21,727 nucleotides of DNA from Pseudomonadota bacterium (GTDB lineage: Bacteria > Myxococcota > JACRCW01 > JAFGSX01). Below, piece by piece: positions 1-20,933 of the stretch. Numbering within the stretch: position 1 is the first letter of the stretch; the number at the start of each line of letters is the position of its first letter. The position numbers and the translations under genes were made by a program. The DNA is taken from NCBI GenBank assembly GCA_043821645.1, contig JBDRCO010000117.1, forward strand, positions 1-21,727. Direction: 5' to 3'. The notes under the pieces are model-generated. The model saw only the letters and a list, made by a program, of their open reading frames with translations, did no database searches and had not been told where the DNA came from.

Positions 1-1758
1 CGCGTCAACGACGACTTCGGACATCTGGCTGGCGACTACGTACTCAAGAAGGTGGCCAACGAGGTGTCGCGCCGCATCCGCAAGGAAGAGTGCTTCGCCC
101 GCTACGGCGGTGAAGAATTCACGATAGTGCTGCCGGACACCCCCATCGACCGCGGCAAGATCCTGGCCGAGAAGATTCGCGCGTTGGTCGAAGCCACGAC
201 CTTCGAGTTTGAGGACGTAATAATTCCGGTCACTGTGAGCATGGGAATAGCGTCGTTGAAGGATTCAGGACAACACCCCGGAATGAATACAAGTGGCGGC
301 GAGCCAGTAGAAGAGTCGGGGGCGGCTGAAGGACTAATCCGAAGAGCAGATGAGTGCATGTTCTTCGCAAAGCGCGCCGGCAGAAATCGTATCATTTGCG
401 AAGGCGATAATTTGATCGCTGATTCGAAGATCGAGAGGCGCGACAGACAAAGAGTTCTGACAAAGACGCAGTTCCAGAAATATCTAAAGAGCCTCACCAG
501 GGGGGCTGTGAATCCGGAAGAAACCGCGGTAATTTCAAGTCAGCCAGTCCGAGAACTCGGTGCCTTTAGACTCTGCAAGCGGTCAACATATCTTGCTGAA
601 GATGGCGGCTTCACTCTAGATAGTCTAGATGAAATGCTGGGTGATGCCATCATACAGTGCATTGGTGTGAATGACGGAATTGGTAGATATGATGAAGGCT
701 TGTGGCTGGTCGCATTGCACGGAGAAAGCGAGCCAATTTGCGCAAGAATAAAGGAAACATTTTCAAGCTACGTCAAAAGGCAGAATATTGAAGCCAAGAT
801 CGAGATGGCGGCAGCAGGTATCGACTATTCTGTGACAGAAAAAGAAAATATAGCACTGTTGATCGGTATTCTGGAAAGCTCGAGTCATAAGTTGGATCAA
901 CCCAAACTAGATCACCCGACCCCTATAATGCTAGCTCGACAAAGAATTGACGCCGAAACTTCGATCGCGTTGCGCTACGACGCTGTCACGAGGTTTGCTG
1001 AAGTATGCTTGCGATACATATTTTCCCACGTCGCGGCAGATCTTTGTTACAACCACGGATCGAGAGTGTGTGAAGCCACATGGAACAAGCTATCGAGATA
1101 TCTAGAAAAGGACGTTTCTTTGGGGGGATGGCATGAGCTCTGCTATCTGGTATGCAAAGAGTGCGTGAAAATCGAAGGGGAGTGTGTTTCCACCGAGACC
1201 GCCGAGATATTGGCGAAAAAAAGACATGGGTCTACTAGACTATACCAACAGATATCAACGATGGTCGAGTCAAGAAACTCACTCCGACACAAGGATGTAA
1301 GTGAGGAAAAGTACGCCGAGGCATTAACGACTGCTTTGCCTGTGGTGGCCGAACTCATGAGAGCCATGGCTAGCACTTGTCAGGTTCCAGTCGTCGTAAT
1401 TCGCGACGTCAAGATACGACCCAGAGACAAGGAGGCGGTATTCCACTATCAGATCAGAAGATTCATTGGCGGCACACAGTTCGCACCGGTGGTTGAATGG
1501 AAATCAAATGAGTGCCTGGAGAACGATAGGGCATATTGGCTAAGGAATAGAGACGGACTGGCGATTCCAACGGATCCCTTTCTTGTTGTGTCGGGGGCGC
1601 AGAGACCAGCACCTATAATTATGGCCATTTCAAAAGTTGTTGGGGGGGTACCGAAGTACCAAGACCTAGTTCATGGAGATGACGTAGACATTGAGGAAGA
1701 ACTCGTTAGCGCGGTTGATCAGAGTGTTGCTCAAAGGCTTGGAATTAGGGAGGGGTAA
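1..1758 (+). CDS. GGDEF (diguanylate cyclase) domain protein with a probable degenerate second GGDEF-like region and a C-terminal HEPN-like domain; 5' end lies outside the window
   Basis: Frame 1 is open from base 1: RVNDDFGHLAGDYVLKKVA...ARYGGEEF...VTVSMGIA...RADECMFFAKRAGRNR are classic GGDEF motifs. The C-terminal half has HPTPI...SLGGWHEL...RNSLRH (1273-1290). Confidence 0.9.
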   Translation, partial: RVNDDFGHLAGDYVLKKVANEVSRRIRKEECFARYGGEEFTIVLPDTPIDRGKILAEKIRALVEATTFEFEDVIIPVTVSMGIASLKDSGQHPGMNTSGGEPVEESGAAEGLIRRADECMFFAKRAGRNRIICEGDNLIADSKIERRDRQRVLTKTQFQKYLKSLTRGAVNPEETAVISSQPVRELGAFRLCKRSTYLAEDGGFTLDSLDEMLGDAIIQCIGVNDGIGRYDEGLWLVALHGESEPICARIKETFSSYVKRQNIEAKIEMAAAGIDYSVTEKENIALLIGILESSSHKLDQPKLDHPTPIMLARQRIDAETSIALRYDAVTRFAEVCLRYIFSHVAADLCYNHGSRVCEATWNKLSRYLEKDVSLGGWHELCYLVCKECVKIEGECVSTETAEILAKKRHGSTRLYQQISTMVESRNSLRHKDVSEEKYAEALTTALPVVAELMRAMASTCQVPVVVIRDVKIRPRDKEAVFHYQIRRFIGGTQFAPVVEWKSNECLENDRAYWLRNRDGLAIPTDPFLVVSGAQRPAPIIMAISKVVGGVPKYQDLVHGDDVDIEEELVSAVDQSVAQRLGIREG

Positions 1759-1845
1759 TATGCGGGGCATACCCGCACACGGGCGCGAAGAACACGCGTC
1801 AATCGAACGTTGAAAAAAATCTGCCGCGACAGCGGAAAGCCGAAT

Positions 1846-1930: not shown

Positions 1931-1996
1931 GCGCCCACTCGACTCGTGCGGCCTGGCAAGCGGGTACGCGAGCTGGCCTGAGACCAACCCACCACA

Positions 1997-3256
1997 TCAA
2001 ACCATGTGGACGGGCACGGCCACGGTCCGCTCGTCGACGAGGAACAGCTCGTCGCCGCCGTGCACGACAATCGCAGCAGCCACCCGAAGTCCTGGATAGG
2101 TGTCGATAAAACTCCGAATGCCGCTCAGATCTCGAGTCGAGGGACGGGAGCTGAGCTTGATCTCGACCGGGAAGTAGACTCCATCGCGCTCCAGCAGCAG
2201 GTCCACCTCGGCACCAGCCGAGGTTCGCCAGTGCCAGCACACAGGCTTGACCGCGAGCGCCGCTGCCTGCTTCAGCAGCTCGAGAACCACGTGGGATTCA
2301 AACAGGTTGCCTGTCCGCGGATGGTCCTGCACAGCCCTGGGCGACGAGATGGAGAGCAGATGGCAGCAGAGCCCCGAGTCCACCAAATGGACTTTTGGGC
2401 GACCCGAGATGCGCTTGAGCGTGTTCCCCGAAAAGGCATCCAGAGTCACGACCATGTATGAGCCAATCAGCGTCTGCAGCCACTGCGCTGCGGTCCGTGG
2501 CGTTACGCCAATCTCGCGACCAAGCTGCGAGGCGTTGATCTCCTGCGCGGTGAGCGCAGCAAGAAGACGGAAGAACCGCGAGAACTGATGCGGATCATTG
2601 AAATCGCGCAGCGTGCGAACGTCGCGCTCGATGTACGTGCGAATGTAAGAATCGAACCACGCCGGCGTCTCGTCGGTCCTGAACGCCTGCAAGCCAGGAA
2701 AGCCGCCACGAAACAGCCGCTCGTACAGGACTGTGGTCCCGCCAGAGCCGCTTGTGCGCGCAAGCCGCTTCAGGAGACCACGGACGTCGCGAACGGGCTG
2801 CGGCACGAACAGCGCCCGCACGAGCCCACCCTGCGTCGCAGCGGCGAGCTCGAGTTGGGACATTGGCAAGAGATCGACAAGCAAGGCTCGACCAGCCAGG
2901 CTCTCCTGGGCGCGACCCAGAACCTGAAACTGCTGCGACCCGGTCAAGAAGTACTGCCCTTTGCGACCCGGCTTCCTGTCCACCACTCGCTTGAGCACGG
3001 GCAGAAGCTCCGGCGCGTGCTGGATCTCGTCGAGAATCAACGGTGGCGAATTGTGCTGAAGGAACAGCTCGGGATCGCGCCGGGCATTACCCACGTCGGA
3101 GACGGGATCGAACACGAATGTTGCCGCACGAGCGCCAAACAGGTGCGCGAGCAGTGTCGACTTTCCAGATTGACGCGCGCCAGCCAGCACCACGACGGGA
3201 AAGCGCCTTGCTAGCGTCTTAAGCCTCTGTTCGACGTGCCGATCTCGGTACTTCAT
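1997..3256 (-). CDS. AAA+ ATPase, AAA_14 + DUF4143 family (C-terminal PD-(D/E)xK-like domain)
   Basis: Walker A GARQSGKST, Walker B LILDEIQ, LTGS, ESLAGR, GGFP, YIERDV, GNLFES, C-terminal EVDLL...PVEIK. Confidence 0.93.
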   Translation of the reverse strand: MKYRDRHVEQRLKTLARRFPVVVLAGARQSGKSTLLAHLFGARAATFVFDPVSDVGNARRDPELFLQHNSPPLILDEIQHAPELLPVLKRVVDRKPGRKGQYFLTGSQQFQVLGRAQESLAGRALLVDLLPMSQLELAAATQGGLVRALFVPQPVRDVRGLLKRLARTSGSGGTTVLYERLFRGGFPGLQAFRTDETPAWFDSYIRTYIERDVRTLRDFNDPHQFSRFFRLLAALTAQEINASQLGREIGVTPRTAAQWLQTLIGSYMVVTLDAFSGNTLKRISGRPKVHLVDSGLCCHLLSISSPRAVQDHPRTGNLFESHVVLELLKQAAALAVKPVCWHWRTSAGAEVDLLLERDGVYFPVEIKLSSRPSTRDLSGIRSFIDTYPGLRVAAAIVVHGGDELFLVDERTVAVPVHMV

Positions 3257-3265
3257 ACACCTTGC

Positions 3266-3294: not shown

Positions 3295-3386
3295 GATGTT
3301 TCTTTTTGGTGTCACCGGCCTTGGCGATGTCCCCACCCCTGCCCTCGCCACATCGCCGCACTTCGCAGTGACGGGTGCTGTCAAAC

Positions 3387-3939: not shown

Positions 3940-4174
3940 AATACAGGATACCAGGGCACTGGGCGCCCTTCTGCGCGCCTCACGCAAGCAACGTGGCGTG
4001 ACCCAGGCCTCGGTGGCTGGCCTCAGCGGTGTTGGCATTCGCTTCCTGTCGGAGCTGGAGCGCGGCAAGGACACGGCGGAGCTTGGAAAGGCCCTGAAGG
4101 TCCTGCAGAGGCTTGGTCTGGAGCTGTGGGTCGTTCCCAGAGGACACAGGCCAGGAGACGACCTTGGCGGCTGA
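3920..4174 (+). CDS. hipB: HipB-like XRE/HTH antitoxin
   Basis: LGALLRASRKQRGVTQASVAGLSGVGIRFLSELERGKDTAELGKALKVL is an HTH_3 pattern. Overlaps the start of hipA. Confidence 0.9.
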   Translation: MNAPYGKIQDTRALGALLRASRKQRGVTQASVAGLSGVGIRFLSELERGKDTAELGKALKVLQRLGLELWVVPRGHRPGDDLGG

Positions 4175-5426
4175 GAGGCTGCTGGTCTTCTACCAGCGCG
4201 AGCTCGTGGGTCAGCTCGACCGCCTCGACGACGGCAGCCTGGAGTTCTGCTACGCGCCCTCCTGGCTGGGCTCGCCTGGACGCTTCGCCGTCTCGCTGAG
4301 CCTGCCGATCACTGGCGAGGCCTACGCGGGCGCCGTCGTCGCCTCCTTCTTCGGCAACCTCCTGCCGGAGGGTGCCGTGCGGACCCTCGTCGCCAGGCGC
4401 CTTGGCCTGTCCGAGGACAATGACTTCGCCCTGCTGCGGGCTCTTGGTGGCGAGTGCGCCGGTGCCCTCACCCTCGTCGTCGACGAGCCTCCTGCAGGAC
4501 CCGGCAGCTACGAGGAGATCAAGCGCAGGGAGATTTTGAAGCTCTGTGCTGACACCGCCGTGGCAGCCACCCTGCTTGGCCAGGGACGCCTGCGACTGTC
4601 CATGGCCGGGGCGCAGGACAAGCTGCCTGTCCTCGTCGAGGATGGGCGCTTCTACCTGCCCCTCGACGGGGCGCCAAGCACCCACCTGCTGAAGTTCTCG
4701 AACCGGGATTTTCCCAACCTCCCGGCCAACGAGTGGTTCACGACGTCACTGGCCCGACGGGTCGGGCTACCGGTGGTCGGGCTGGAGGTGGTGCTCGACG
4801 GGCAGGCCTGCCTGGTGGAGCGGTTCGACAGGGTACGTGGGGTCGACGGCAGCGTGCTCAGGCTGCATCAGGAGGACTTCTGCCAGGCCTTCGGGCTTCC
4901 TCGCCACACCAAGTACGAGCAAGAGGGTGGCCCCTCGTTCGCTCGCTGCTTCGAGCTGGTCACCAGGGAGTCCTCGGACCCCCTGGCGGACAGTGACACG
5001 CTGCTTCGCTGGCAGGTCTTCAATGCGCTCGTGGGAGCCGCTGACGGACACGCCAAGAACCTCGCCCTGCTCTACCCTGCCCTGCCCTCCTCGCCCCGCC
5101 TGGCGCCGTTGTACGACCTCGTGTGCACCCGCGTGTATCCTCGGCTCAGTACCAGGCTCGCCATGCGCGTGGGTTCGGTTGACGACCCCGGCCAGCTCAC
5201 GAGCAAGGACTGGGGCGAGCTGGCGAGGGCCACGGGGGTCAGTGCGCCATTCCTGCAAAAGCTCGTCGTGGGTCTGGCAGATGAGGTCCTGGGGAATGTC
5301 GACGCGGTAGCTGCCGAGCTCGACGCTCAGCTCAAGGCCACGGTCGGGCGGGACTGGCTGAGGCCTGTGGTCCTGAAGAATGCCAGGAGGGTGAGGAAGA
5401 ACTGCCTGCCGCCGAAGAAGGGCTGA
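4164..5426 (+). CDS. hipA: HipA-family toxin kinase (N-terminal Couple_hipA + HipA_C)
   Basis: SLSLP, FGNLLPEG, SMAGAQDK, LVERFDR, LHQEDFCQA, KYE, DGHAKN, LAPLYDL. TTG start at 4164 follows AGGAG. Confidence 0.93.
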   Translation: MAAERLLVFYQRELVGQLDRLDDGSLEFCYAPSWLGSPGRFAVSLSLPITGEAYAGAVVASFFGNLLPEGAVRTLVARRLGLSEDNDFALLRALGGECAGALTLVVDEPPAGPGSYEEIKRREILKLCADTAVAATLLGQGRLRLSMAGAQDKLPVLVEDGRFYLPLDGAPSTHLLKFSNRDFPNLPANEWFTTSLARRVGLPVVGLEVVLDGQACLVERFDRVRGVDGSVLRLHQEDFCQAFGLPRHTKYEQEGGPSFARCFELVTRESSDPLADSDTLLRWQVFNALVGAADGHAKNLALLYPALPSSPRLAPLYDLVCTRVYPRLSTRLAMRVGSVDDPGQLTSKDWGELARATGVSAPFLQKLVVGLADEVLGNVDAVAAELDAQLKATVGRDWLRPVVLKNARRVRKNCLPPKKG

Positions 5427-5442: not shown

Positions 5443-6108
5443 TTGCCCTTGCAGGAAAAGCTGCTGATGACGGTGACCAGGGACAGAAAGAGCCTCGTGC
5501 AGGCAAAGCCTGGCGTCGCCAGGCAGTGGAACGTCGAGCGCAATGGCGACCTGAAGGCCGATGAAGTCACCCCGGGCAGCAAGAAGAAGGTCTGGTGGCG
5601 CTGCTCGAAGGGCCACGAGTGGCAGGCCACGATCATATCCAGGTCAGCGGGCGCGAGCTGCCCCTACTGCCTGGGTCGGCTGGCGGCCGACGACAACTCG
5701 CTCGGTGCCCTCTTCCCGGACCTGGCGGCCGAGTGGGACCACGAGAAGAACCCCGAGCCAGGGCCCAGCCGGGTCAGGCCCGGCAGCCTTCGCCAGGTCT
5801 GGTGGCTGTGCCCGGAGGGGCACTCCTACGAGGCGAGGATTCTTACTCGCAAGAACGGTCACGGCTGCCCGTACTGCGCCGGCCAGAGAGCCGGCTACGG
5901 GCGCAGCCTGGCGGACCAGCACCCTGCCCTGGCCCTTGAGTGGCATCCGACCAGGAATCGGAAGCTCGAGCCTTCCGACGTCACGCCAGGATCCGGGCGC
6001 AAGGTGTGGTGGAGGTGTGCCCGGGGCCATGTGTGGCAGGCGAGCGTGAACAGCCGGTCACATGGGAGCGGGTGCATGCGCTGCTACATGAAGCACGGGG
6101 GCAAGTAG
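5443..6108 (+). CDS. Zinc-ribbon repeat protein (DUF4379-like, three repeats)
   Basis: Three copies of WxxxxN...PGSxxxVWWxCxxGHx[WY]xA...GxxCxxC. Start could be 5443 (TTG) or 5467 (ATG). Confidence 0.85.
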   Translation: MPLQEKLLMTVTRDRKSLVQAKPGVARQWNVERNGDLKADEVTPGSKKKVWWRCSKGHEWQATIISRSAGASCPYCLGRLAADDNSLGALFPDLAAEWDHEKNPEPGPSRVRPGSLRQVWWLCPEGHSYEARILTRKNGHGCPYCAGQRAGYGRSLADQHPALALEWHPTRNRKLEPSDVTPGSGRKVWWRCARGHVWQASVNSRSHGSGCMRCYMKHGGK

Positions 6109-6506: not shown

Positions 6507-7388
6507 TCATGGAAGGACCTCGGTGTAGCTCATGGTCCCGACCGCCGGAATCTTCAGAAGCGCGAAAGTAGGGTTCGTGTCGTCCATGGCTCCCGAGCGA
6601 CCCATAAGATGGGCGCGGCAGGACCTGGTGACCTTCCACGAGTACCGGTCGTCGCCAGGGTCATGGATGTGGCCGCACAGGATGGCTTCCACCTGGAGGT
6701 CCTTGACCACCTGCTCGAGTCGTTCGAGGTCGCTCGCGAGGTAGCCGTACTCGAGCTCCTCCTGGAAGAGGCTGGAGAGGGACTGGGGCTGACTCTGGAT
6801 GGGTGGGCCGTGAGTGGCCAGGACGCGACGGCAGTCGCGGCCGTCCTCGCCGGAGCGCAGGCACTGCTCCTCCGCGTCCCGGAAACAGGAGATGGCCACG
6901 TCGCCCGTCACGCGGCCCGTGCTGTCGCTGGCGAGCAGACGGACGTGGCCGAGGTCCTTGTGCAGGGGGAACAGGTCGCCGTCCTCGTCGAGGAGGTCTG
7001 CCGGTCTCGCCAGCTCTCCTGCCCAGTCGCAGAAGGCCTGGTAGTGGTCGCCGGCATCACGCCGTGCGGCTGCCGTGAGGACCTGGCGAAACTGTGTCGT
7101 GCGGCTCGCCCGGCCGGACACCCGGAAGACGTCGTGGTTGCCCACGACGATGGTCAGGCGGTCGCGCTTCCACAGGCCCAGGCGCCTGAGCTCGCGCTTC
7201 ACGGCGGCACGATCTCGCTGCATGGCCCCGGCGCTGTCGAAGGTGTCGCCCACGATGACAACGTGGTCGGGTTTTCTGGCGGCCACCGCCTCGAACATGG
7301 TGCAGGCCAGGTCCCACGAGTCCGGGTGATGCCTGCTGTCTATGTGCTGGTCGGAGAGGACCGCGAGCTTGAAGGTGCGGGAACTCAC
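6507..7388 (-). CDS. Calcineurin-like metallophosphoesterase
   Basis: All five motifs present: SDQH, VGDT, VGNHD, THGP, CGHIH. GTG start overlaps the upstream TGA (GTGA). Confidence 0.9.
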   Translation of the reverse strand: MSSRTFKLAVLSDQHIDSRHHPDSWDLACTMFEAVAARKPDHVVIVGDTFDSAGAMQRDRAAVKRELRRLGLWKRDRLTIVVGNHDVFRVSGRASRTTQFRQVLTAAARRDAGDHYQAFCDWAGELARPADLLDEDGDLFPLHKDLGHVRLLASDSTGRVTGDVAISCFRDAEEQCLRSGEDGRDCRRVLATHGPPIQSQPQSLSSLFQEELEYGYLASDLERLEQVVKDLQVEAILCGHIHDPGDDRYSWKVTRSCRAHLMGRSGAMDDTNPTFALLKIPAVGTMSYTEVLP

Positions 7389-8044
7389 TGCTTCTTGCCT
7401 GCCATCGCGGCCACCAGCTTGAGTGGACCGCGAGTCTCGAGGTCCAGCTCCAGGCTGCCTGGGCTGACCTTGAGATTCTTGATGGCGAAGAGGTCACCAA
7501 CGCGCTGGCCGAGGACCGTCCTGTCGATGAGCTTCCTGGTCTGCTCGAGCTTGTCGATATGACAGGTGACCACGCCGTTCTTGTAGTCGATGCCACTGGT
7601 ATCAAGATTCTCGAGCGTCTCGGCCTCGATGTCGGGGAAGAGTGCCTTGAGGATGGCCAGGACCAGCGCTCCCATGATGCGGCGGACGAAGCCGCCGTCT
7701 GCCTCGAGCTTGGGGTCCACGTCGATCTTCAGGACGCCCATGCAGCCTGTCTTCGAGAAGCGGCAATTGCTACCGGTCACCCGAACCTTCATCAGGGAGC
7801 CAAGCATTCTCCTTGGCTTTCCCTCGAGCACGATGGTGTCTTGGTCAAGGCGAAGATTCACGTTGTCCAGATCGTCGGCAATGCTGGACCTCGCGTGGCG
7901 TTGCAGGGTTTTCTCGGGAATGGCCAGGTGGCCTCGCTTCAGCGCTCCGAGGAAGTTCGCGCCGACGAGGTCCTTCAGGAGCTCATCGAGGCCGTGCTTG
8001 CTGGCGGCCCTTGCTGCATCACCGAGCTTGTCGAGAAGGCTCAT
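7385..8044 (-). CDS. Hypothetical protein, translationally coupled to the metallophosphoesterase
   Basis: Clean ORF, GGAGGG Shine-Dalgarno before ATG 8044, 4-nt overlap with the next gene. No recognised motif. Confidence 0.75.
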   Translation of the reverse strand: MSLLDKLGDAARAASKHGLDELLKDLVGANFLGALKRGHLAIPEKTLQRHARSSIADDLDNVNLRLDQDTIVLEGKPRRMLGSLMKVRVTGSNCRFSKTGCMGVLKIDVDPKLEADGGFVRRIMGALVLAILKALFPDIEAETLENLDTSGIDYKNGVVTCHIDKLEQTRKLIDRTVLGQRVGDLFAIKNLKVSPGSLELDLETRGPLKLVAAMAGKKQ

Positions 8045-8172
8045 GGGGTACCCCTCCATGTCACAGCCCCGAAACCCATCAGACAGCGTCAGAATGCAGG
8101 TTGTCGACGCCCGCTCTCAAGCAGCGCTCGTGGGTCCATGCTCCGCTCCGAGATGTCCTCAGGCGCACGCAC

Positions 8173-10224
8173 TCAACCTCTCCGGGTCGGGGCACAATTC
8201 CCGCATGGGGCGTCCTTCGCGTCGAGAGGCAGACCGCACACCTTGCAGAACAGAAGGTTGAGCTCCGAGGTCTTCGAATGCTCCAGCCACGGGCTTTCGA
8301 ACTCATTGAGATAGATCGAATGTCCGCAGAAGGAGAATGCAACCTCCCAGCCCTTGCTCGTGGCTCTGCGGAGCCTGCCGTGACGTCGTGCGTCGTCACA
8401 ACGCGGGCAGGACGAGTTGACGAGAAGGTTGGATTCGTAGACCGCCTCGGTCGCGCCGCAGACCACGGGTCTGCGCCCGGTGTTCTGGATGGACCACAGC
8501 GCCCAGTTCTGTACCCAGGGCTTGCCAGAGCTGAAGGCCTGCACCAGCTTCACGATGAGCCCTGACAGGATCCGGAGGTCGTCCTCGCCCGGCACCAGAC
8601 CGCCGTGCATGATCCTGTTCCTCAGGGCGACGATGGTGTTGAGACCGTCCCGCAGGGTCCTGTCCGAGCGGACCGGCTTGAGGTACCTCGGGAGTATGGC
8701 CTCAGGGATATCCGATGAGAGTCTCTGCAGGAGCTCGTTCATCGCCCCGAGGGTTCCCTTCTCCAGCAAGCTCTTCAGCTCCGGGCGATGAGCCTTCGTA
8801 CCGTAGGAGGTCTCCAGAGCCGTGAGGGACATGAGGCTCACGATGTCTTCAAGAAGGATCAGGCCCTCCGAGACCAGGTTCGCAGTCTTCCCACCCGAGC
8901 GCTCGAGGCGATCGAGGATGCCCTTGAAAACCGGGGAGAGCGATTGCTCCCACTCGTTCAGACACATCCCATGGCAATGCTGGAAGAATGGATGCCTCGG
9001 GATCTCGAGCGTGACCCTGTTCTTGTTGAACCAGGGGATGATCGGTTTCCCTCCAAGATCCTTCTGGGTCAGTACCCCCTGATAGCCAAAGCGCTCTGGA
9101 AAGATCGTGATCCTGGCTTCCGGAGCCAGTGCCATGCCGGTCATGGAGACGTCGGTCGGTTCGTCGTATCCCCCGATGGAGGACGTGATGGTGTTCCCGC
9201 CAGCCGGGAACTCCGAGAACACGACGAGATCGGCCGCGAACAAGGTCGCGCCCGCGAAGTGCTGCTGCCGCCAGGACAGGGTCGACCTGGCGAGTCTCAT
9301 CGCCCTGTCGATCTCGGTGGAGCAGAACGCCGCCAGATGCAGATCGCCCGAGAGCGGGGCATGCAGGCCCGAGGAGCCAGGATCACCGAGCATATCGAGG
9401 GCATGAGTGAAGGTGCCCGAGAACGGCGAACTCGACCTCAGCAGGACAAGGACGAGATAGAACTGTTCCGCGGTCCTCGATCTCGCCATCAGCAGATTGT
9501 AGAGGTCGAAGATGGCCTGCACTGCAGACTTGCTGGCGATGTGAAGATGGACCCGGCCGATGGCAATCGAGGCCCCCGGGGAGCAGACCAGTTCGTCGAT
9601 GCTCTCCCCGTTCACGAAGGTTCCTCGCTTCCTGTCGAGGTTCGTGAGTGTCATGACCCCGTTTTTGAGAACGAACTCGCAATGAGGGTTGCCAACGGAG
9701 CGATCATTGATGGTGAAGGATGACGAATTCTCGCCTGCTTCCTTCCCACGCGATACGCGAACCCGGCGAGATTCATCGAGCCTGAACAGGGCAGCCTTCT
9801 GTGGTCTCTCGAAGGCTGGGCCGAGAAGAAAGAACTGGGGCTCCGAGGAGTCGGACAGTCCATCTCGCGCGCATTGACACTGCTCGACCCACGGAGACAG
9901 TCGGTCGGCCAGTCCATCCTCGACGATGAAGATGGAGCTGCCGCCGAGAACCAGGACGTCGCCGGCTGTCACGTAGGCTCGATCGAGCCTGGCGCCCTCG
10001 AAGACGACCCCGTTGGTGGATCCCAGGTCGCGCACCTCGCAGGAATTGTCGTCGTAGTAGACAAATTCAGCGTGGCTCTTGGAGACCAGGATGTCCGAGA
10101 GCTTGATGAGAACAGTGCTGCTGCCGTCCTTTGCCGCTGGCTCCTTGCCCAGGACGACAGGCCTTCCCGGGACGATGCGGGTGCGACCGATGCCGCCGGG
10201 GACTGGGTAGAGGATGGAAAGCAT
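8173..10224 (-). CDS. Double-FHA protein with HEPN-like domain and Cys-rich C-terminus
   Basis: FHA1: VLGK...VSKSHAEF...DLGSTNGV. FHA2 (degenerate): VSRG...VGNPHCEF...GTFVNG. Then TLGAMNELL...RNRIMH (8605-8622), followed by CPRC, FCGH, CKVC, CGNC. Confidence 0.85.
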   Translation of the reverse strand: MLSILYPVPGGIGRTRIVPGRPVVLGKEPAAKDGSSTVLIKLSDILVSKSHAEFVYYDDNSCEVRDLGSTNGVVFEGARLDRAYVTAGDVLVLGGSSIFIVEDGLADRLSPWVEQCQCARDGLSDSSEPQFFLLGPAFERPQKAALFRLDESRRVRVSRGKEAGENSSSFTINDRSVGNPHCEFVLKNGVMTLTNLDRKRGTFVNGESIDELVCSPGASIAIGRVHLHIASKSAVQAIFDLYNLLMARSRTAEQFYLVLVLLRSSSPFSGTFTHALDMLGDPGSSGLHAPLSGDLHLAAFCSTEIDRAMRLARSTLSWRQQHFAGATLFAADLVVFSEFPAGGNTITSSIGGYDEPTDVSMTGMALAPEARITIFPERFGYQGVLTQKDLGGKPIIPWFNKNRVTLEIPRHPFFQHCHGMCLNEWEQSLSPVFKGILDRLERSGGKTANLVSEGLILLEDIVSLMSLTALETSYGTKAHRPELKSLLEKGTLGAMNELLQRLSSDIPEAILPRYLKPVRSDRTLRDGLNTIVALRNRIMHGGLVPGEDDLRILSGLIVKLVQAFSSGKPWVQNWALWSIQNTGRRPVVCGATEAVYESNLLVNSSCPRCDDARRHGRLRRATSKGWEVAFSFCGHSIYLNEFESPWLEHSKTSELNLLFCKVCGLPLDAKDAPCGNCAPTRRG

Positions 10225-10302: not shown

Positions 10303-11655
10303 TCATTTCTTGAGTGACTTCCTCGTCACGCCGTCGAGGGTACTATAGATCAGGCGACCCTTCTCGTCGGGGACCACGCCGCAGGCGAGCAGGAGCTCAT
10401 GTCGCTGAGTTATCTCGGAGACCTCGCATCGAATGAAGGGACGCAGGGGAGTGGCGCGGTTCTTCCTGCCAAAGAGATAGCACCAGCCTTCGCTGAGCCT
10501 GTCCGCCGTCGTCGCATCCATGATCGGGAAATGGTCCTGGGAACCGCTGTGAAGACGCAACTTGTAGCGGATGAGAGGGTGCTCGTCCTGCTCGTCGTCG
10601 CTTGAATGCTCGAAGGATACGATCTTGGCCATACTTACCAGCCAGTTCTCCCTGATGGGAAGAAAAGCCCGGCAGAAGTCGGACCAGAGTGAGAAGATCT
10701 CACCTTCCCTGGCCTCGGCGGCCGCAGACGGGACGATGGCATGGGCCTGGATGTTTCGGTAGGGCACCAGCTCGCGACGCAGCCGCCCGGTCAGCTCTGT
10801 CTGTGCGCCCCGGGCGTCCAGGAATGCTTTCGATATTTTCGTGTAGGAGTCAGCCTCCAGCGGGAGCAGCGGAAGCAATTTCAAACAGAGCTCCAGCCAT
10901 TTTCCCATCGTGATCATGTTCGGATAGGCACCCAGGATCGCGTCAAGCCTCGCTGCGAGTCCCTCATCCGTTCGAGACCTCGCTCGTGCTCTCAGCTCTG
11001 CAATCAGGAGGAAGCAGAAGAAGGATAGACCTTTTTCAAAACCTACCAGCCATACCCTGACCTTCTGTGACGACTCGTGCTCGGCCTTTCCCAGGGTCTT
11101 GAAGGCGGCCAGTGGAGAGGGCAGCAGGTCGAGTTCGTGATTCTCGGTGGCCGTGTATTCCCGAGGAAACATGGCAGCGTTGGTCAACTCGAGGCTGTAG
11201 TTGTGACTCGCAAGCAGGATCATGTTGCCGGGTATGAGGCGTACCGGTTGCTCGGGACTCAGCCTCATTGCCTCAAGAATGGCGGAATCGTCTGGCCTCT
11301 TGCCCACGATCTCGATGTCAGTGATGAAGCTGCCGTTGCTGGAGCCCCTGTCCTCGTAAAACCAGGAGCCTGCCTTGAAGGTCAGGTAACCATGCAATCT
11401 CGATATCTTGTCGTTGCCTTCGATCCGGATCAGGCACTCACTGCCCCGGCCGACGGTGTAGAGCTTCTTCTCGTCCAGGGGAAGGTCGTTGGTCTCGGTC
11501 CCGCGTCGGACCCTGATGACTTGATTGGGCCTTTCGAAAACGCCCGTGGGATTCTCCTCCAGGGAGTCAAACGGGTTCACGTCCTTCTTGCCTGCAATGG
11601 CAGTGATGGCGCCGTCTCGCACCTCAGCGACGCCATGTGACGATCTTCTTGGCAA
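10303..11655 (-). CDS. FHA-domain protein with C-terminal HEPN-like domain
   Basis: Canonical FHA (VGRG...ISRLHG...DRGSSNGSF). Then LPSPLA...TMGKWLEL...RNIQAH (10741-10758). GAGGGG precedes the TTG start. Confidence 0.87.
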   Translation of the reverse strand: MPRRSSHGVAEVRDGAITAIAGKKDVNPFDSLEENPTGVFERPNQVIRVRRGTETNDLPLDEKKLYTVGRGSECLIRIEGNDKISRLHGYLTFKAGSWFYEDRGSSNGSFITDIEIVGKRPDDSAILEAMRLSPEQPVRLIPGNMILLASHNYSLELTNAAMFPREYTATENHELDLLPSPLAAFKTLGKAEHESSQKVRVWLVGFEKGLSFFCFLLIAELRARARSRTDEGLAARLDAILGAYPNMITMGKWLELCLKLLPLLPLEADSYTKISKAFLDARGAQTELTGRLRRELVPYRNIQAHAIVPSAAAEAREGEIFSLWSDFCRAFLPIRENWLVSMAKIVSFEHSSDDEQDEHPLIRYKLRLHSGSQDHFPIMDATTADRLSEGWCYLFGRKNRATPLRPFIRCEVSEITQRHELLLACGVVPDEKGRLIYSTLDGVTRKSLKK

Positions 11656-12477: not shown

Positions 12478-12563
12478 TCCACTCCTCCTGCTCTCCTGCC
12501 GCCCGGCCTTCCGGGTCCTGACAGGGCCCTGCCCTGCCCACCTCGGGTCTGCCTGGACAGTCC

Positions 12564-12764
12564 TCAGGCGGCCTGGGCCAGCGGATGCTCCTGGACCGCC
12601 TTGCGGCGGCGGGACAGGGCCATGGACCGGACGCAGTCGAGCGTGCTGCGGTAGCAGCGAGGGCAGAGGTCGTGCTGCCGGTCCGCCTTCCAGCGTCCCC
12701 GGTACTCGAAGCGAGCGGTGTGGCAACCACAGTGGCGGCAACGGTGCTTGCTTTGCTTCGTCAT
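12564..12764 (-). CDS. Small basic zinc-ribbon protein (66 aa)
   Basis: CRHC...LCPRCY; GGAGGG Shine-Dalgarno before ATG 12764. Confidence 0.7.
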   Translation of the reverse strand: MTKQSKHRCRHCGCHTARFEYRGRWKADRQHDLCPRCYRSTLDCVRSMALSRRRKAVQEHPLAQAA

Positions 12765-16551: not shown

Positions 16552-17358
16552 TCAGAGGGGGACGGGGGTTGAGGTCGGGCTGCGGCCGTCCCAGGAGACG
16601 AAGCCCCTGTTGTTCTCGTCGCGGTTTGAAAGGGTTGGCAGACCGATACGGGTCAGCCTGTAGCCGGTCTTGGGGGTGGTCTCGATGCCGTGGCTGTAGC
16701 GGTGGTTGTGGCCGTGGATGAAGGTGTCGACCTTGAAGGGCACCAGGAGCCTCTCCTCGAGCCTGCGGCGGCGATCCAGGCTCGAGTGCCTGGGGTCTTC
16801 CCACAGGCTCCTGTGGGTCACCAGGTGCAGCCTGCGTGAGCCACGGTCGAGCCCCTCAAGCACGCCACACACCCAGTCGAGCTGCTCGCTGGTGATGCGC
16901 TTGCCACCCTTGAAGCCAGCGTAGGCGGCCTTGCCTCGGTGCGTGCTGCGAAGGGCCATAAACAGTTCGCTGCCAGTGTCGATGACGAGGTCGAAGTCAT
17001 TGTGGGCGATGACCTCGGGCTGGTGGCGCACCTTTTCGAGGATGGCCTCGAAGCGCTTGCGGCCGCTCTTGCCGACGAGAGGAAGGTGCTCGCCGGTCAC
17101 GCCGAAGTCGTGGTTGCCAGGGGTCAGCACGATCAGGGCGCCACGGTCGAGGAGAGCATCCACGAAGTCGGACGCGACCTCGTACTCCTCCTCAGTGGGG
17201 TGCTGGACCAGGTCGCCGGCGATGACCACGACGCGGTCCTTCGGATCGCTGCGGTGGTCGTAGGCGTCGAGGATTGCTTGCCAGAGCCTCTGTTCGGAGC
17301 GGGCGACGTGGATGTCGGAGACGAGGAGCATGGGAAACCTCCAGGACATCAGGAACAC
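16552..17358 (-). CDS. Calcineurin-like metallophosphoesterase
   Basis: SDIH, AGDL, PGNHD, THRS, HGHNH. Exact start uncertain (17358 GTG, 17349 ATG or 17331 ATG). Confidence 0.88.
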   Translation of the reverse strand: MFLMSWRFPMLLVSDIHVARSEQRLWQAILDAYDHRSDPKDRVVVIAGDLVQHPTEEEYEVASDFVDALLDRGALIVLTPGNHDFGVTGEHLPLVGKSGRKRFEAILEKVRHQPEVIAHNDFDLVIDTGSELFMALRSTHRGKAAYAGFKGGKRITSEQLDWVCGVLEGLDRGSRRLHLVTHRSLWEDPRHSSLDRRRRLEERLLVPFKVDTFIHGHNHRYSHGIETTPKTGYRLTRIGLPTLSNRDENNRGFVSWDGRSPTSTPVPL

Positions 17359-17391
17359 CGGACAGGGGCACCGGCAACAGCGGCTTCCAGG

Positions 17392-18009
17392 TCACGGCTT
17401 CTCGAAGTAGGCAATGACCCGCTTGCCGAGGAGCTTGACCTCGATGTGGTTCCAGGTGCCGCCGATGAGGCCGCCGACGACGGGGACGGTTTTTGTGATC
17501 ACCGCCTTCTGGGTGACCTTTAGGCCGAAGTACTTGAGCATGTAGCTCTTGAAGGCCTTGAGGGTCGCCTTGGACAGGTACTTCCTCACCACGGCTCTCG
17601 ACAGGTTCATGCCTCCGCGCATGCCCAGCTCGCGCAGGGCCTGGCTCGCAGCGTCGATGCCGAAGATGGGGATCAGCAGCTCCCAGCAGGCGTCCTCGTC
17701 GTCGAGGAAGTGGGGGTCGTAAATCAGAGCGACCCGCGCCGCGGCCTTGACCTCCGTGCGGAGCACGAAGCCAGCGTCAGCGATGGCGGCCGGGATGGCT
17801 GCGAAGGGGTTGGACGGCAGGCCGGTGAGCACGCCAGCGCCTGTGGCCGTCCAGGCCGCGCGCTTGAGGATCTTCTTCGAGAGCGCCTTGTTGTCGAGGC
17901 CAGGGTAGGCCTCACGAAGCGCGGCGACGTCGGCCTTGATCTCCAGCGCGTCGACGGTCACGGCAAAGTGCAGGGCGCGGGCGACAAGGGACTGGGTCTC
18001 GGTGGTCAT
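17392..18009 (-). CDS. EcsC/DUF697-like protein
   Basis: GAGVLTGLP...AAIADA...ALIYD...KTVPVVGGLIGGTWN is EcsC-like. GGAGG before ATG 18009. Confidence 0.8.
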   Translation of the reverse strand: MTTETQSLVARALHFAVTVDALEIKADVAALREAYPGLDNKALSKKILKRAAWTATGAGVLTGLPSNPFAAIPAAIADAGFVLRTEVKAAARVALIYDPHFLDDEDACWELLIPIFGIDAASQALRELGMRGGMNLSRAVVRKYLSKATLKAFKSYMLKYFGLKVTQKAVITKTVPVVGGLIGGTWNHIEVKLLGKRVIAYFEKP

Positions 18010-18058
18010 GGGGTTCCTCCGCTGGTTCCTGTGGAAGGGACGGAGGGTGGGGGGAGGA

Positions 18059-18087
18059 TCTGACAGCGTGGCGAGCGTGCTGTCAGA
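18059..18087. promoter_or_regulatory. Palindrome between divergent genes, putative regulator site
   Basis: TCTGACAGC-N11-GCTGTCAGA, perfect 9-bp arms. Confidence 0.5.
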
Positions 18088-18139
18088 GATATTTGGCGGC
18101 TGGCGTCCTGGGGATAGCCACCCACCCGAGGAGGACGCC

Positions 18140-18620
18140 ATGACGAGCAGCAAGCGCGAGCAAGCCAAGGGCCTGGTCTACAAGTACACCGTGGCGGCGG
18201 CCGCTACCGGAGCGGTTCCAGTGCCCGCGGCGAGCGGGGCCATCGTCCTCGAGGATGCGGCCATGGTCGCCCACGTGTCCTCGATCTAGCTCGGACATCA
18301 CGCTGTGGAGCGTTATCGAGAACCTGGGAACGATGGCGACCCTCAACATGGCCGGGCGCGCCCTGTTCATCGAGATCGCGCGAACCCTGGGCTGGGGGGT
18401 GGGTGGTCCGCTGCCAGCCATCCTGCTCAGCGGCGCGGGTGCTGCCACGGCCGGCGTGCAGACCTTGATCCTTGGCATGCTGGCCATCGAGATCTGCGAG
18501 AACGGCGGCGAGCCCCTGCCAGCTCACATGGTCGCGCAGCTGGTCGGTCACTGCAGGTCGGCGTACGAGGGGCTATTCTCCGGTAGGGAGTCGGCTACAT
18601 CACCTGCAAACGCTCACTAG
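18140..18620 (+). pseudogene. Frameshifted DUF697-like protein
   Basis: GAGGAGG then ATG 18140: AAAATGAVPVP...MVAHVSSI, stop at 18289. A protein-like continuation (SSDITLWSVIENLG...GAATAGVQTLILG) runs in the +1 frame to 18620. Confidence 0.75.
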
Positions 18621-18635
18621 GTGCTGCGCCACGAG

Positions 18636-20933
18636 CTAGCTTGGCTGTCCCTCGGCAGTCGAGCCCATGAAGGCCTTCAGCTCAGCTAGCATGTCCCCAG
18701 CACTAGTATAGCGATCCGCGGGCCTAGAAGCCGTGGACCGCTCGTAGATCTTTCGCAGAGGCTCGGGGACGCGAGGGAGCTCTCTCTCGATGGGCTCAGG
18801 ATCATTTGTGCGGGGGTGGCGCCCTGCAAGGAGGGCGAAGAGGAGGCGGCCCGCGGAGTAAATGTCAGAGGCCGCACACGGCTCGCCACTGGCCTGCTCA
18901 GGCGCCATGTAGGCATTCGTGCCAACGACCACCCCTGTCCTGGTCAAGCTTGAACCTGCCCCAATGTCCCTCGCGATGCCGAAGTCGATCAGCTTCACGG
19001 TACCGCCGTGGAGGATGATGTTCGCTGGCTTGAGGTCCCGATGGAGGACACCCTCGCCGTGGAGGTACTGCAGGCCCTCGAGGACCTGGATGAGGAGCTT
19101 CGCTGCCTGTTGAGGGTCCATCTTGTGCTCTGCGAAGCTGAGCTCAAGGGATTCACCCGCGATAAGCTCCATCTCAATGAAGGGCACTCCGGCACTGTCC
19201 ATGGCCGCAGTATAGATCTTCACGATGGCTGGGTGGCTGAGCTTGATGAGGATCCTCGCCTCTCGCCGGAAGCGCTCCACAATATCGGGGTTATTCCTCA
19301 GCTCTTGCTTGAGCTTCTTCAGCGCCCTGCGCTCAGAGAGCATGGTGTTCTCGACTTCCCAGACCTCGCCCATGGCACCCTCACCAAGGCGGCCGATGTA
19401 GCGATAGCCGCTATCATCTCCAGGGACCTTGAAGCGACTGTCCAGCTTGCTGAGCTCTTCTTCTCCCAAGCTGAGGTCCTGGCGTGAATGCCACTCCCGA
19501 CCCGACTTCAGGTAGCTATCGAGAGTGACCTTGGAGTCGACATGGGCGGGTGCAAAGAGCTGACCCTCGATGCGCTCCTTGCGGAGAGGGTGGGCATAGT
19601 GAGAAATCCAGGTCTCTCCTTGTGGTACGATCTTTTCTAGCCAGTAGAAGATGGCCACTTCCCTGCTCTCTATCCGCATCAGCGGAGTCAGGTCGAGCAT
19701 TCTCTTGGTGGCCATATCCAGGAGGAGGACATCGCGCTCTGGCCAAGCCTCGCGCCCGTGTAGCGTGACACTCTTCGAGCGCTCCTCCTGGCCGCGACAT
19801 GCAGTCCAGAGGTTGATGCTCCTACCTTGTCCGCCGTATTTACTCCCGATATTGGAGCCCAAGTGGTAGCCACGCAGGAAGGCCGTCTGCTCCATGAGCC
19901 AGGTGAGGGGGCCGTCAAGTTCCAGGAGCCGCGTCCGAGCTTCATCTTCGCCCAAAGCCCAGTCGACATGTGCAAAGACGTTTCGATCCGATCTAATGGC
20001 CTCTGTCATCCTGAGCCAGTCGTCTTCGAGGCAGGTCGATATTTCTTTGAGGAAGGGTCCCCCATTCTCGACGAGGAAGCCCGTCGTTGACTGCACCAAG
20101 TTCAGCAGCTTCCCTGTCCCAGGATTCTCAAGCATCCTGAGCCAGGTCCGAGCTTGCTTGTCTGTTGCGCCCAGTCCCAGTGAATCAGATAGGTTGACCA
20201 GCGCGAGGAAGCGAAAGAGCCCCTCCAGGAACTTGAGCGCATACGGGAACTTGTGCGCTAGCGTCTCGGAGTGTTTGTAGTGTCTGTACAGAACCGAGAT
20301 GGGGAAAGGGAGCTGGAACATGAAAATATGATCGAGGCCCTCCTGCTCACTTGGGCTCACGACTTTCCTATCTCTGGGATACAGATGCCTTGACAGACCC
20401 TCGCCCAAGACACTCTCACCAGCCTCGGGCACCGTAGCGCTGAACCCGGCGAGCGCTCTCCTGGCCGCGTAGTTATCGACCGGTGAGGAGTGCGACCTCA
20501 CGTCGAACCCGAGATCTTGAAGCCTCTCAACCATCTCCCTGTTTGAGGTGCCCAACTCCTTGGCGAGTTGATAGACACGCACTCTGTGGTGAGTCCGGGC
20601 GCTCTCGTGGAAGCCAAGGGATTGAGGACCTGTTAGGGAGTCAGGCTCTACTGAGTCACCAGGTGTGCGGCTGTCCCCTGACGGCTGGTCGGCAGGAGTG
20701 ATACCACCGTCCCGGCGCTTCCGAAGAACCCAGGTCGTCTTCTTGGGGGCGACGCTAGCAGGAGTTGAGGCCTGAGAGCTCGCTTCGGCGAGCGCTGTCC
20801 TTGCGTCCGCCTCGTCAACCGACGATGAGAGTGACCTGACATCAAAGCCGAGCGCTTGGAGCTTCAGCACGATCTCTTGGTTGGACAGCCCGAGCTCTTT
20901 GGCGAGCTGATAGACGCGAATTTTCTCTCCCAC
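18636..20933 (-). CDS. Hanks-type Ser/Thr protein kinase with two IF-2 N-terminal (IF2_N) domains and a central HEPN-like domain
   Basis: Kinase motifs GEGAMG, ALK, RFRREA, HRDLKPAN, DFG, YMAPE, SDIYS. RVYQLAKELG occurs twice. QLPFPI...GTGKLLNL...RNVFAH (19968-19985). GTG start at 20933 after AGGAG. Confidence 0.9.
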   Translation of the reverse strand: MGEKIRVYQLAKELGLSNQEIVLKLQALGFDVRSLSSSVDEADARTALAEASSQASTPASVAPKKTTWVLRKRRDGGITPADQPSGDSRTPGDSVEPDSLTGPQSLGFHESARTHHRVRVYQLAKELGTSNREMVERLQDLGFDVRSHSSPVDNYAARRALAGFSATVPEAGESVLGEGLSRHLYPRDRKVVSPSEQEGLDHIFMFQLPFPISVLYRHYKHSETLAHKFPYALKFLEGLFRFLALVNLSDSLGLGATDKQARTWLRMLENPGTGKLLNLVQSTTGFLVENGGPFLKEISTCLEDDWLRMTEAIRSDRNVFAHVDWALGEDEARTRLLELDGPLTWLMEQTAFLRGYHLGSNIGSKYGGQGRSINLWTACRGQEERSKSVTLHGREAWPERDVLLLDMATKRMLDLTPLMRIESREVAIFYWLEKIVPQGETWISHYAHPLRKERIEGQLFAPAHVDSKVTLDSYLKSGREWHSRQDLSLGEEELSKLDSRFKVPGDDSGYRYIGRLGEGAMGEVWEVENTMLSERRALKKLKQELRNNPDIVERFRREARILIKLSHPAIVKIYTAAMDSAGVPFIEMELIAGESLELSFAEHKMDPQQAAKLLIQVLEGLQYLHGEGVLHRDLKPANIILHGGTVKLIDFGIARDIGAGSSLTRTGVVVGTNAYMAPEQASGEPCAASDIYSAGRLLFALLAGRHPRTNDPEPIERELPRVPEPLRKIYERSTASRPADRYTSAGDMLAELKAFMGSTAEGQPS
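20475..20918 (-). repeat. Two intragenic IF2_N repeats (20814-20918 and 20475-20579)
   Basis: 27/35 aa identical, with many synonymous DNA differences. Confidence 0.9.

Follow-up and report, generated by a model that had tools for sequence, protein, structure and literature searches.

Contig JBDRCO010000117.1 of the Pseudomonadota bacterium assembly GCA_043821645.1 measures 21,727 bp, and this entire contig is the window analysed here. It belongs to a draft genome of 7.07 Mb with a guanine plus cytosine (GC) content of 67.2%. Four of its genes encode proteins of signalling type which carry, respectively, a GGDEF domain, two FHA domains, one FHA domain and a Ser/Thr kinase domain. A preliminary description, made from the sequence alone, had noticed in all of them a stretch with the string R-N-x3-H and had taken it for a shared HEPN-like module. 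The locus raises the question of whether such different proteins share one module, to which superfamily this module belongs and what it does. The results presented here indicate that the module is shared, that its helical half represents a so far unclassified family within the HEPN superfamily, and that the four copies of the window may be regulated effectors of RNase type. The four genes are the following (aa, amino acids; ORF, open reading frame).

1..1758, + strand: GGDEF-module protein, 585 aa, 5' end cut by the contig edge (Pfam GGDEF at aa 1-130, E 1.6e-23)
8173..10224, - strand: FHA-FHA protein, 683 aa, with a HEPN-type half and a Cys-rich, zinc-ribbon-like tail (Pfam FHA in two stretches, E 8.1e-20)
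10303..11655, - strand: FHA-module protein, ORF of 450 aa (Pfam FHA at aa 66-114, E 7e-9); the database version (P0005) has 439 aa and starts at nt 11622
18636..21089, - strand: protein with two IF2_N domains, the module and a Ser/Thr kinase domain, ORF of 817 aa (Pfam Pkinase at aa 562-765, E 9.2e-43; IF2_N, E 1.3e-21); the database version (P0006) has 765 aa and starts at nt 20933

The module is shared by the four proteins

Pairwise comparison of the four segments was not significant, the best BLASTP match having an E value of 2.1 and the best phmmer match one of about 0.25. When each segment was compared with the genome by phmmer, only the self-match was returned, and a word-indexed homologue search with the FHA module gave the same result. 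A profile was built from the four window segments (alignment A1, whose first row begins at aa 291; the coordinates of the motif in the GGDEF protein were worked out by hand) and searched against 1.84 billion cluster representatives. At E<=1e-3 it found 109 proteins, namely the four of the window and 105 from outside.

To avoid circularity, an outside-only profile was built without window sequences from 99 of the 105 outside proteins. The others (P0023, P0066, P0072, P0100, P0107 and P0111) had best-domain scores below 30 bits. Among the 46,740 six-frame ORFs of the genome, this profile matched the kinase protein (E 4.4e-52), the FHA protein (1.3e-47), the GGDEF protein (3.9e-36) and the FHA-FHA protein (3.2e-9), and nothing else at E<=10. 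A further profile, made from seven outside proteins in which the module stands alone, an architecture absent from the window, gave E values of 2.9e-31, 1.1e-23, 9.4e-22 and 0.023, again with no further match in the genome. The four segments therefore align significantly through profiles (E 4e-52 to 3e-9) and not pairwise. The motif strings quoted in the preliminary description were all found in the four translations. One could still suppose that helical, low-complexity segments had been aligned by chance around a short R-N-x3-H string, as the pairwise BLASTP and phmmer values would allow. This is refuted by the outside-only and stand-alone profiles, and the 105 outside relatives and the identical order of helices in two independent models also speak against it, so that its probability is negligible.

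The kinase, FHA and GGDEF proteins match about 235-275 positions of the profile, and the FHA-FHA protein positions 50-184 only. The full module of about 270 aa is present in three proteins, and its helical half of about 140-150 aa in the FHA-FHA protein. The Cys-rich C-terminal part of the latter (CPRC..CGH) is not homologous to the beta half of the other three. The common module of about 250-280 aa first attributed to all four genes is thus full-length in the kinase, FHA and GGDEF proteins and reduced to the helical half in the FHA-FHA protein. It is C-terminal in the GGDEF, FHA-FHA and FHA proteins and lies in the middle of the kinase protein.

883..1596, + strand: module in the GGDEF protein, aa 295-532 as aligned (outside-only profile, E 3.9e-36, positions 8-242), with the helical HEPN-type half at about nt 883-1386, followed by the beta half
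1273..1290, + strand: R-N-x3-H of the GGDEF protein, aa 425-430 (invariant R135, N136 and H140 of alignment A1)
8515..8934, - strand: HEPN-type helical half of the FHA-FHA protein, about aa 431-570 (outside-only profile, E 3.2e-9)
8605-8622, - strand: R-N-x3-H of the FHA-FHA protein, aa 535-540 (invariant R120, N121 and H125 in alignment A4)
10741-10758, - strand: R-N-x3-H of the FHA protein, aa 300-305 (invariant R135, N136 and H140 in alignment A2)
19551..20339, - strand: module in the kinase protein, aa 251-513 (outside-only profile, E 4.4e-52, positions 8-281)
19968-19985, - strand: R-N-x3-H of the kinase protein, aa 369-374

No model of Pfam, NCBIfam or PADLOC covers the module. The only faint hint was HEPN_RiboL-PSP, with an E value of 0.36 on the FHA-FHA protein. 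The kinase protein also matched PD-T4-6 of PADLOC (E 7.6e-70), a match spanning only the kinase domain (aa 561-808).

The helical half belongs to the HEPN superfamily

The AlphaFold 2 (AF2) model of the FHA protein module, computed with a 50-row alignment, had a predicted local distance difference test (pLDDT) value of 92.5 and a predicted template modelling (pTM) score of 0.90. It consists of a helical part and a beta-rich part.

10648..11157, - strand: helical HEPN-type half of the FHA protein, model residues 2-171 (AF2 model; VIA-align HEPN matches)
10330..10644, - strand: beta domain of the FHA protein, specific to the family, model residues 173-277 (AF2 model with ten strands)

The helices of the model comprise residues 15-26 and 30-61, then an insert of three short helices (68-77, 85-98 and 105-110) that separates the second and third core helices, and finally residues 122-140 and 145-164. 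The R135-N136-x3-H140 motif ends helix 122-140, and a loop and helix 145-164 come next. A conserved E with R/K four residues on is located in the long helix 30-61. In the AF2 model of the FHA-FHA segment, where residues 20-155 have a pLDDT of about 90 and the C part is unmodelled (below 50), the order of the helices is identical.

A Foldseek search with the module model gave no match at E<=0.001 in the PDB or among viral models. The helical part was also compared with 48,161 chains by VIA-align, an exhaustive structural search. The two best of the 50 rows listed were Roquin (Z 9.3 and 8.2), in a region taken to be its HEPN domain. Nine of the listed rows are named HEPN or Csm6 (8jbc, 7ae2, 3o10, 8xdj, 6tug, 4rgp, 4nqf, 1wol and 5yjc). 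By the accessible text of Anantharaman et al. 2013 (PMC3710099), 1wwp, 1ylm and 1jog as listed structures and LsoA (5hy3) by its family are HEPN as well, which brings the HEPN chains to at least 13 of the 50 listed rows, with Z 5.6-7.5. Against this evidence, Z values of 6-9 can be reached by chance for helical bundles, according to the tool's own note, and the defining features of HEPN domains were therefore tested instead. As described in the same accessible text, these are Rx4-6H at the end of helix 3, a polar residue after the R, a second acidic residue in helix 2, typically within E-x3-[KR], and an insert between helices 2 and 3. All four are present in the model and the alignment.

A profile-profile comparison by hhalign of the helical half (98 outside rows) with HEPN_RiboL-PSP (PF18735), the sole HEPN family compared in this way and represented by 20 genome-encoded members above the Pfam cut-off, gave a probability of 91.9% (E 7e-7, 124 columns). 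The E and RN..aH columns were in register, and the reversed control reached 0.2%. Two weaker hints point the same way. The best PDB sequence match of the family profile was HepS (9oij; E 0.049), over 61 residues including the helix with RN..aH, and the Pfam model of HEPN_RiboL-PSP matched 5 of 50 family members at E<=1, the best at E 0.0013. Its gathering threshold of 28.4 bits was not reached in the window, where the best score was 11.2 bits (FHA-FHA protein), and the genome holds no PF18735 match at E<=1e-6.

Because fold, motif position, second acidic motif and profile-profile match agree, the helical half can be assigned to the HEPN superfamily as a new family, and the HEPN-like nature proposed in the preliminary description is borne out. 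This family is about 170 aa long and all-helical, with E-x3-R in helix 2 and R-N-x3-H closing helix 3. It is related to HEPN_RiboL-PSP, with which it shares the helical core and both motifs in the same positions, but it falls below the threshold of that family, is not a member of it, and has features of its own, namely an N-terminal P-x-P motif, a G-x-W insert and the added beta domain. The beta domain, of about 100 aa, is specific to the family and is attached in three of the four window proteins. The sole leads to its nature were small barrels of S28e type (Foldseek probability 0.94-0.99, E 0.1-0.45, 57-67 columns). A homodimer prediction for the FHA protein module, run without controls, scored 0.01 against a mark of 0.42 and speaks neither for nor against binding.

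Distribution and domain architectures of the family

Partner domains were identified by Pfam and PADLOC scans of the 105 outside proteins.

Pkinase: 19 proteins
FHA alone: 15 proteins
FHA and GGDEF: 11 proteins
STAND NTPases, with the module half N-terminal: 7 proteins, of which 4 by Pfam (including NACHT) and 3 Avs2-like by PADLOC
C-terminus of HsdR: 6 proteins, with the helical half C-terminal
Type I specificity subunit (HsdS) or methylase: 5 proteins, with the helical half C-terminal
Macro, TIR-TPR, FGE-sulfatase, GH3 and MIT/TPR: 1 protein each
No other recognised domain, including stand-alone forms of about 180-310 aa: the remaining proteins

Across the family, the module is thus indeed paired with interchangeable partner domains, as had been supposed from the window. 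A structure search of the Atlas found regions of the same size (TM 0.65-0.80) in Macro, restriction subunit S, N6_Mtase, CHAT, HSP70, NB-ARC and HEAT proteins, with no Pfam 38.1 family over the aligned part. The PADLOC model PDC-S15, matched by 3 of 50 members, was rejected as a description of the module because it is located in the HsdR C-terminal region outside it.

The 5' end of the GGDEF-module gene being cut, its relatives give an indication of the complete form. The 11 outside proteins with FHA, GGDEF and module suggest an order FHA-GGDEF-(degenerate GGDEF-like)-module. A "mid" domain of about 160 aa is conserved in these FHA-GGDEF-module proteins, and aa 180-258 of the window protein, a weakly GGDEF-like stretch between GGDEF and module, match its profile weakly (E 0.075 genome-wide).

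In a survey of 400 other genomes of the phylum, with at most five candidates scored per genome, 30 had a match at E<=1e-5, and none of the 40 nearest relatives did. Locus contexts were taken from the phylum genomes and amount to 38 related loci in 26 genomes. The outside-only profile re-found 35 of them; L089 and L093, which were not re-found, and L094, a weak match (8.4e-5), were left out. The architectures in the phylum are listed below.

FHA-GGDEF-module-SIR2_2 (L035-L039, L041), ORFs of 1137-1904 aa: five genomes, plus one split form (L039, two overlapping ORFs)
Pkinase-module-nSTAND1(-WD40) (L077-L087, L090-L092), 1372-2413 aa: 13 genes and a fourteenth truncated at a contig end
FHA-GGDEF-module, module-Pkinase, ResIII helicase-module and module-FGE-sulfatase
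Macro-module (side locus L043): two genes from a PRTase-CE gene
module-GGDEF (side locus L052): adjoins a WYL-WCX-HTH regulator gene

Three of the FHA-GGDEF-module-SIR2_2 genes adjoin a gene for an Lhr-type helicase. The kinase-module-nSTAND1-WD40 genes come from genomes G390, G262, G281, G261, G155 and G196, with at least five paralogs each in G262 and G390. The WYL-WCX-HTH and PRTase-CE neighbours are typical of defence loci. In locus L054 (G094:C2:1-1829) the module gene is split into overlapping ORFs that match profile positions 5-103 and 90-276, which is probably a frameshift or assembly slip. Searches by tblastn of plasmids with three module queries, and of phages with one, gave no match at E<=1e-3.

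Conservation and loss of the catalytic motif

None of the four window copies has lost E, R, N or H, and the residue four positions after the E is R in the GGDEF and kinase copies. Since their HEPN catalytic residues are intact, the window modules would be metal-independent RNases of the HEPN kind, which leave 2',3'-cyclic phosphate ends, or would at least bind RNA. In the 99 outside rows, R was found in 96/98, N in 98/98, H in 92/97 and E in 84/98, with R/K at E+4 in 73/98. The helical half is also placed as an effector would be, N-terminal in the Avs2-like and NACHT STAND proteins and C-terminal in HsdR and HsdS/methylase proteins. The N-terminus is the usual effector position of STAND proteins. 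On these grounds the reading preferred here, with a probability of about 0.55, is that the four window modules are acquired, regulated RNase-type effectors that make up a switchable stress or defence set.

Several observations weigh against this reading. The FHA and FHA-FHA copies carry S instead of R/K at E+4. The high conservation of R, N and H outside the window is in part a product of the search, since R-N-x3-H was already contained in the profile used. Among the 35 phylum genes, 15 keep R-[ND]-x3-4-H and one has it with shortened spacing, while five have no histidine and 14 no motif, so that the histidine or the whole motif is lost in 19/35. All 14 kinase-module-nSTAND1-WD40 genes are without the motif at the aligned site, and 12 of these 14 modules have no such string anywhere. 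In the SIR2-linked forms, Q replaces the motif H in four of six, which are four of the five genes without histidine. Other columns are the ones retained in every class: the N-terminal P-x-P, one Trp within the insert and, in the beta half, one Gly and one Pro. In 36 phylum ORFs the P-x-P prolines are kept in 35 and 33, the beta-half Gly in 33 and the Pro in 34, and the motif-less kinase-module-nSTAND1-WD40 copies still keep the P-x-P, Trp, Gly and Pro positions. Such class-wide conservation outside the catalytic motif points to a common non-catalytic role. Furthermore, none of the 38 related loci had more than one module gene, and when the neighbour genes of the window were compared with all ORFs of these loci, only generic AAA_14/DUF4143 similarity was found. 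Finally, the two calcineurin-like phosphoesterases encoded in the window look general calcineurin-type and need not be protein phosphatases, their metal-binding motifs presumably resembling those of general or cyclic-nucleotide phosphodiesterases more than those of PPP protein phosphatases.

The family thus holds both catalytic-looking and clearly degenerate, non-catalytic forms. The preliminary description had stated that all copies keep R-N-x3-H. This is true of the window copies and of 92-98% of the profile-selected outside proteins, and fails in the 19 phylum homologues mentioned above. The same description had envisaged a conserved multi-gene system. Since at most one module gene was found per related locus, and neighbours do not recur, a conserved four-gene system is not supported in the sampled loci.

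These losses lead to the most serious alternative, which is clearly less probable than regulated RNase effectors and still deserves weight. According to it, the module descends from a HEPN ancestor and serves chiefly as a scaffold, sensor or oligomerisation unit without catalytic activity. It would bind a ligand, RNA or a partner and signal to a neighbouring output domain, the R-N-x3-H of the window copies being a binding site or a relic. The 19 degenerate phylum homologues, with the entire nSTAND1-WD40 class among them, and the conserved residues outside the motif would be explained in this way. The module also often lies beside another recognised effector (SIR2_2, TIR_2, Macro or HsdR). In the FHA-GGDEF-module-SIR2 proteins it sits between a nucleotide cyclase and an NADase, which is where a second-messenger sensor sits in other systems. 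However, a scaffold does not account well for the four residues kept in every window copy, or for the motif kept in 92-98% of the outside proteins across FHA, kinase, HsdR and STAND classes. The placement of the helical half in the Avs2-like STAND proteins, at the N-terminus, is the one usual for effectors. Moreover, HEPN domains that serve as plain binders have typically lost the motif, according to the accessible text of Anantharaman et al. 2013 (PMC3710099).

Clustering, composition and origin of the module genes

All four module copies of the 7.07 Mb genome are confined to this contig of 21.7 kb. A simple calculation puts the chance of four copies falling on one contig at about (21.7/7072)^3 = 3e-8. 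The GC content of the module genes is given below.

GGDEF-module gene: 50.2%
FHA-module gene: 58.3%
kinase-module gene: 59.3%
FHA-FHA gene: 61.4%

The standard deviation of GC across the 2 kb windows of the genome is 2.3%, and the four genes fall in the lowest 0.06-1.4% of these windows. The GGDEF-module gene is below all but 0.06% of them, and its GC at third codon positions (GC3) is 0.54.

A tree was made from the helical half (101 rows, without two outside rows that had fewer than 110 columns filled). The kinase copy lies within a kinase-linked clade with a Shimodaira-Hasegawa-like approximate likelihood-ratio test (SH-aLRT) support of 99, and the FHA copy is found together with HsdR-fused and stand-alone forms (SH-aLRT 95). 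For the GGDEF and FHA-FHA copies the tree gives long, unresolved branches. By this sequence tree the window copies are old, separate lineages and not local duplicates. Given the deviant GC and the clustering of separate lineages, a horizontally acquired island fits best, and the module genes have probably been gathered by horizontal transfer into one island.

The four genes could alternatively be ordinary housekeeping signalling genes of a myxobacterium-like kind, for development or motility, the module being a lineage-specific regulatory domain with no part in RNA cleavage or conflict. Such genomes are rich in kinases and in FHA and GGDEF proteins, the best NCBIfam matches of the FHA proteins were myxobacterial regulators (with low scores), and Pfam and PADLOC scans of the contig revealed no phage, integrase or known defence-system model except kinase-domain matches. 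Set against this are the strongly deviant GC, the patchy distribution (30/400 phylum genomes, 0/40 nearest relatives), the fusion of the module elsewhere to restriction subunits, Avs2-like STAND, TIR, SIR2 and Macro domains, and the presence of two HipA-type toxin kinases on the same contig. A housekeeping role is consequently held to be improbable.

Partner domains and IF2_N repeats of the kinase protein

The motifs of the partner domains are present in the translations: GGEEF in the cyclase, HRD, DFG and APE in the kinase, and G-R, S-x-x-H and N-G in the FHA domains. The diguanylate cyclase is probably active, and so, probably, is the Hanks-type kinase. The kinase protein bears in addition two repeats at its N-terminal side.

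20445..20927, - strand: two IF2_N repeats of the kinase protein (BLASTP E 1e-23 and 7e-20)

With the N-terminal domain of the genome's own IF-2 (L095, G000:C116:3987-6797), these repeats share 76% and 61% identity; that IF-2 was itself identified by an E value of 7e-195 to chain 3jcj_f. None of the 19 outside module-kinase proteins, and neither of the two among the phylum loci, has IF2_N. The repeats therefore look like a recent capture of a host translation-factor domain. They hint at the translation-initiation machinery as the site where the kinase protein acts, a location that would be fitting for an RNase. The linker between them (20600-20790, - strand) is rich in Ser, Thr and Pro and contains two T-P-x-D sites. 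This is the kind of site that some FHA domains prefer, and the two sites are possible docking sites for the FHA-module proteins.

A possible mechanism

Many defence and toxin systems, among them Cas13, Csm6, RNase L and Abi proteins, use a HEPN RNase as their killing or arresting component. If the window modules are regulated RNase effectors, their activity would be controlled by the attached domains, that is, by the phosphothreonine readers of the FHA and FHA-FHA proteins, the cyclase and the kinase. A trigger would activate the kinase, the resulting phosphothreonine sites would recruit the FHA-HEPN proteins, and the modules would stay inactive until brought together by phosphorylation or nucleotide signals. 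Once together they would cleave RNA and stop growth. Because of the IF-2-like repeats on the kinase protein, the place of action would be translation initiation. RNA cleavage, assembly, phospho-gating and growth arrest under attack or stress are what we infer from the domains.

A bolder and rather doubtful version is that the cluster is a bacterial counterpart of Ire1 and RNase L, their logic being spread over several proteins. It would constitute a new class of RNase system, gated by phosphorylation and serving abortive infection or arrest under stress. Through its two copies of the host IF-2 N-domain, the kinase-HEPN protein would dock at the initiation machinery, and it would phosphorylate itself or its partners. 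The FHA-HEPN proteins would read the phosphothreonines, and the two kinds of protein would form mixed HEPN dimers cutting RNA. A nucleotide signal might be added and removed by the cyclase-HEPN protein and the two phosphoesterases. The motif-less kinase-module-nSTAND1-WD40 proteins would then be an NLR-like, non-catalytic offshoot.

Comparison with known systems

Ire1 and RNase L, which are activated through kinase-driven dimerisation, carry a protein kinase or pseudokinase fused to the KEN domain. Like the window protein, they have a domain of Hanks-type kinase and one of HEPN type on a single chain. The order differs, being kinase and then KEN in Ire1 and RNase L and reversed in the window protein (module at aa 251-513, kinase at aa 562-765). 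The phylum proteins that do have the kinase first, those with nSTAND1-WD40, have lost the motif, unlike the competent KEN of Ire1 and RNase L. In the accessible text of PMC3710099, KEN is treated as a HEPN domain with a catalytic R, a polar residue and H.

That text also describes the RiboL-PSP-HEPN family as distantly related to AbiD/AbiF. The association with restriction-modification and STAND proteins seen here is like the one it reports for HEPN domains. A term search of it finds no mention of fusions to FHA, GGDEF or Ser/Thr kinases. HepS (PDB 9oij) is a HEPN abortive-infection nuclease, but with 212 aa it lacks the beta domain and the FHA, GGDEF or kinase partners; the Salmonella protein is a tRNA anticodon nuclease according to the accessible part of a preprint (10.64898/2026.10.19.760177). 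Csm6 and Csx1 are likewise HEPN RNases gated by a fused sensor, and Csm6 chains were among the VIA-align matches (Z 5.6-7.5). Their sensor is CARF, whereas those of the window are a phosphopeptide reader, a kinase or a cyclase. MNT-HEPN pairs consist of a small HEPN protein and a minimal nucleotidyltransferase, whereas the window has the module in multidomain proteins, with no nucleotidyltransferase gene on the contig by Pfam and no CRISPR context.

The closest set of partners is found in the STAND/FGS conflict systems of multicellular bacteria, with Pkinase, FHA, nSTAND1, NACHT, WD40, FGE-sulfatase, TIR and calcineurin-like domains. In the accessible text of Kaur et al. 2021 (PMC8195603), nSTAND1, S/T/Y-kinase and FHA are among their N-terminal domains, and no HEPN-type domain is named between kinase and nSTAND1; its supplements may hold it under another label. 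The module is likewise not named in the accessible texts of PMC3710099, PMC7159879, PMC8195603, PMC10907252, PMC13581612 and 10.64898/2026.10.19.760177, the supplements of which may list uncharacterised domains. Full-text literature searches found no description of a HEPN domain with FHA, GGDEF and kinase, and nothing on FHA with GGDEF and SIR2. What is new is thus a HEPN family with new partner domains, the HEPN superfamily itself being known.

The family adds a sizeable unannotated HEPN branch, with at least 105 cluster representatives and presence in 30/400 sampled genomes of one phylum. Its members are coupled to readers of phosphothreonine, to Ser/Thr kinases and a c-di-GMP-type cyclase, to SIR2 and TIR, and to restriction enzymes and NLR-like STANDs. 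With a profile of this branch, hundreds of "hypothetical" stretches in proteins of immune type would receive an annotation. Should the window copies be active, they would offer a compact four-gene set for asking whether phosphorylation gates a bacterial HEPN RNase, and the motif-less STAND forms would show how such a domain becomes a scaffold.

Other genes of the contig

Two pairs, each composed of an unknown gene and a calcineurin-like phosphoesterase gene, lie near the module genes.

6507..8059, - strand: unknown 224-aa gene and calcineurin-like phosphoesterase gene (ORFs; Pfam Metallophos, E 5.2e-13)
16552..18168, - strand: unknown 258-aa gene and second calcineurin-like phosphoesterase gene (ORFs; Pfam Metallophos, E 1.3e-12)

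The genes of the first pair overlap by 4 nt and are on the same strand as, and downstream of, the two FHA genes. The second pair is on the same strand as the kinase gene and downstream of it. The 224-aa protein had no Pfam match, and an Atlas search gave hypothetical proteins only. The two pairs are barely alike, and neither recurs beside module genes in the 38 related phylum loci. The remaining genes noted on the contig are the following.

4113-5426, + strand: HipA-type kinase gene (HipA_C, E 5e-48, plus a Couple_hipA N-domain)
15185-16510, + strand: second HipA-type kinase gene (HipA_C, E 4.9e-21)
12028-12741, - strand: LRAT/NlpC-family protein
13297-13947, + strand: weak UDG-like protein (E 6.9e-4)
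5443-6108, + strand: protein with three DUF4379 treble-clef zinc fingers
1997-3256, - strand: AAA_14/DUF4143 ATPase, which has four paralogs in the genome

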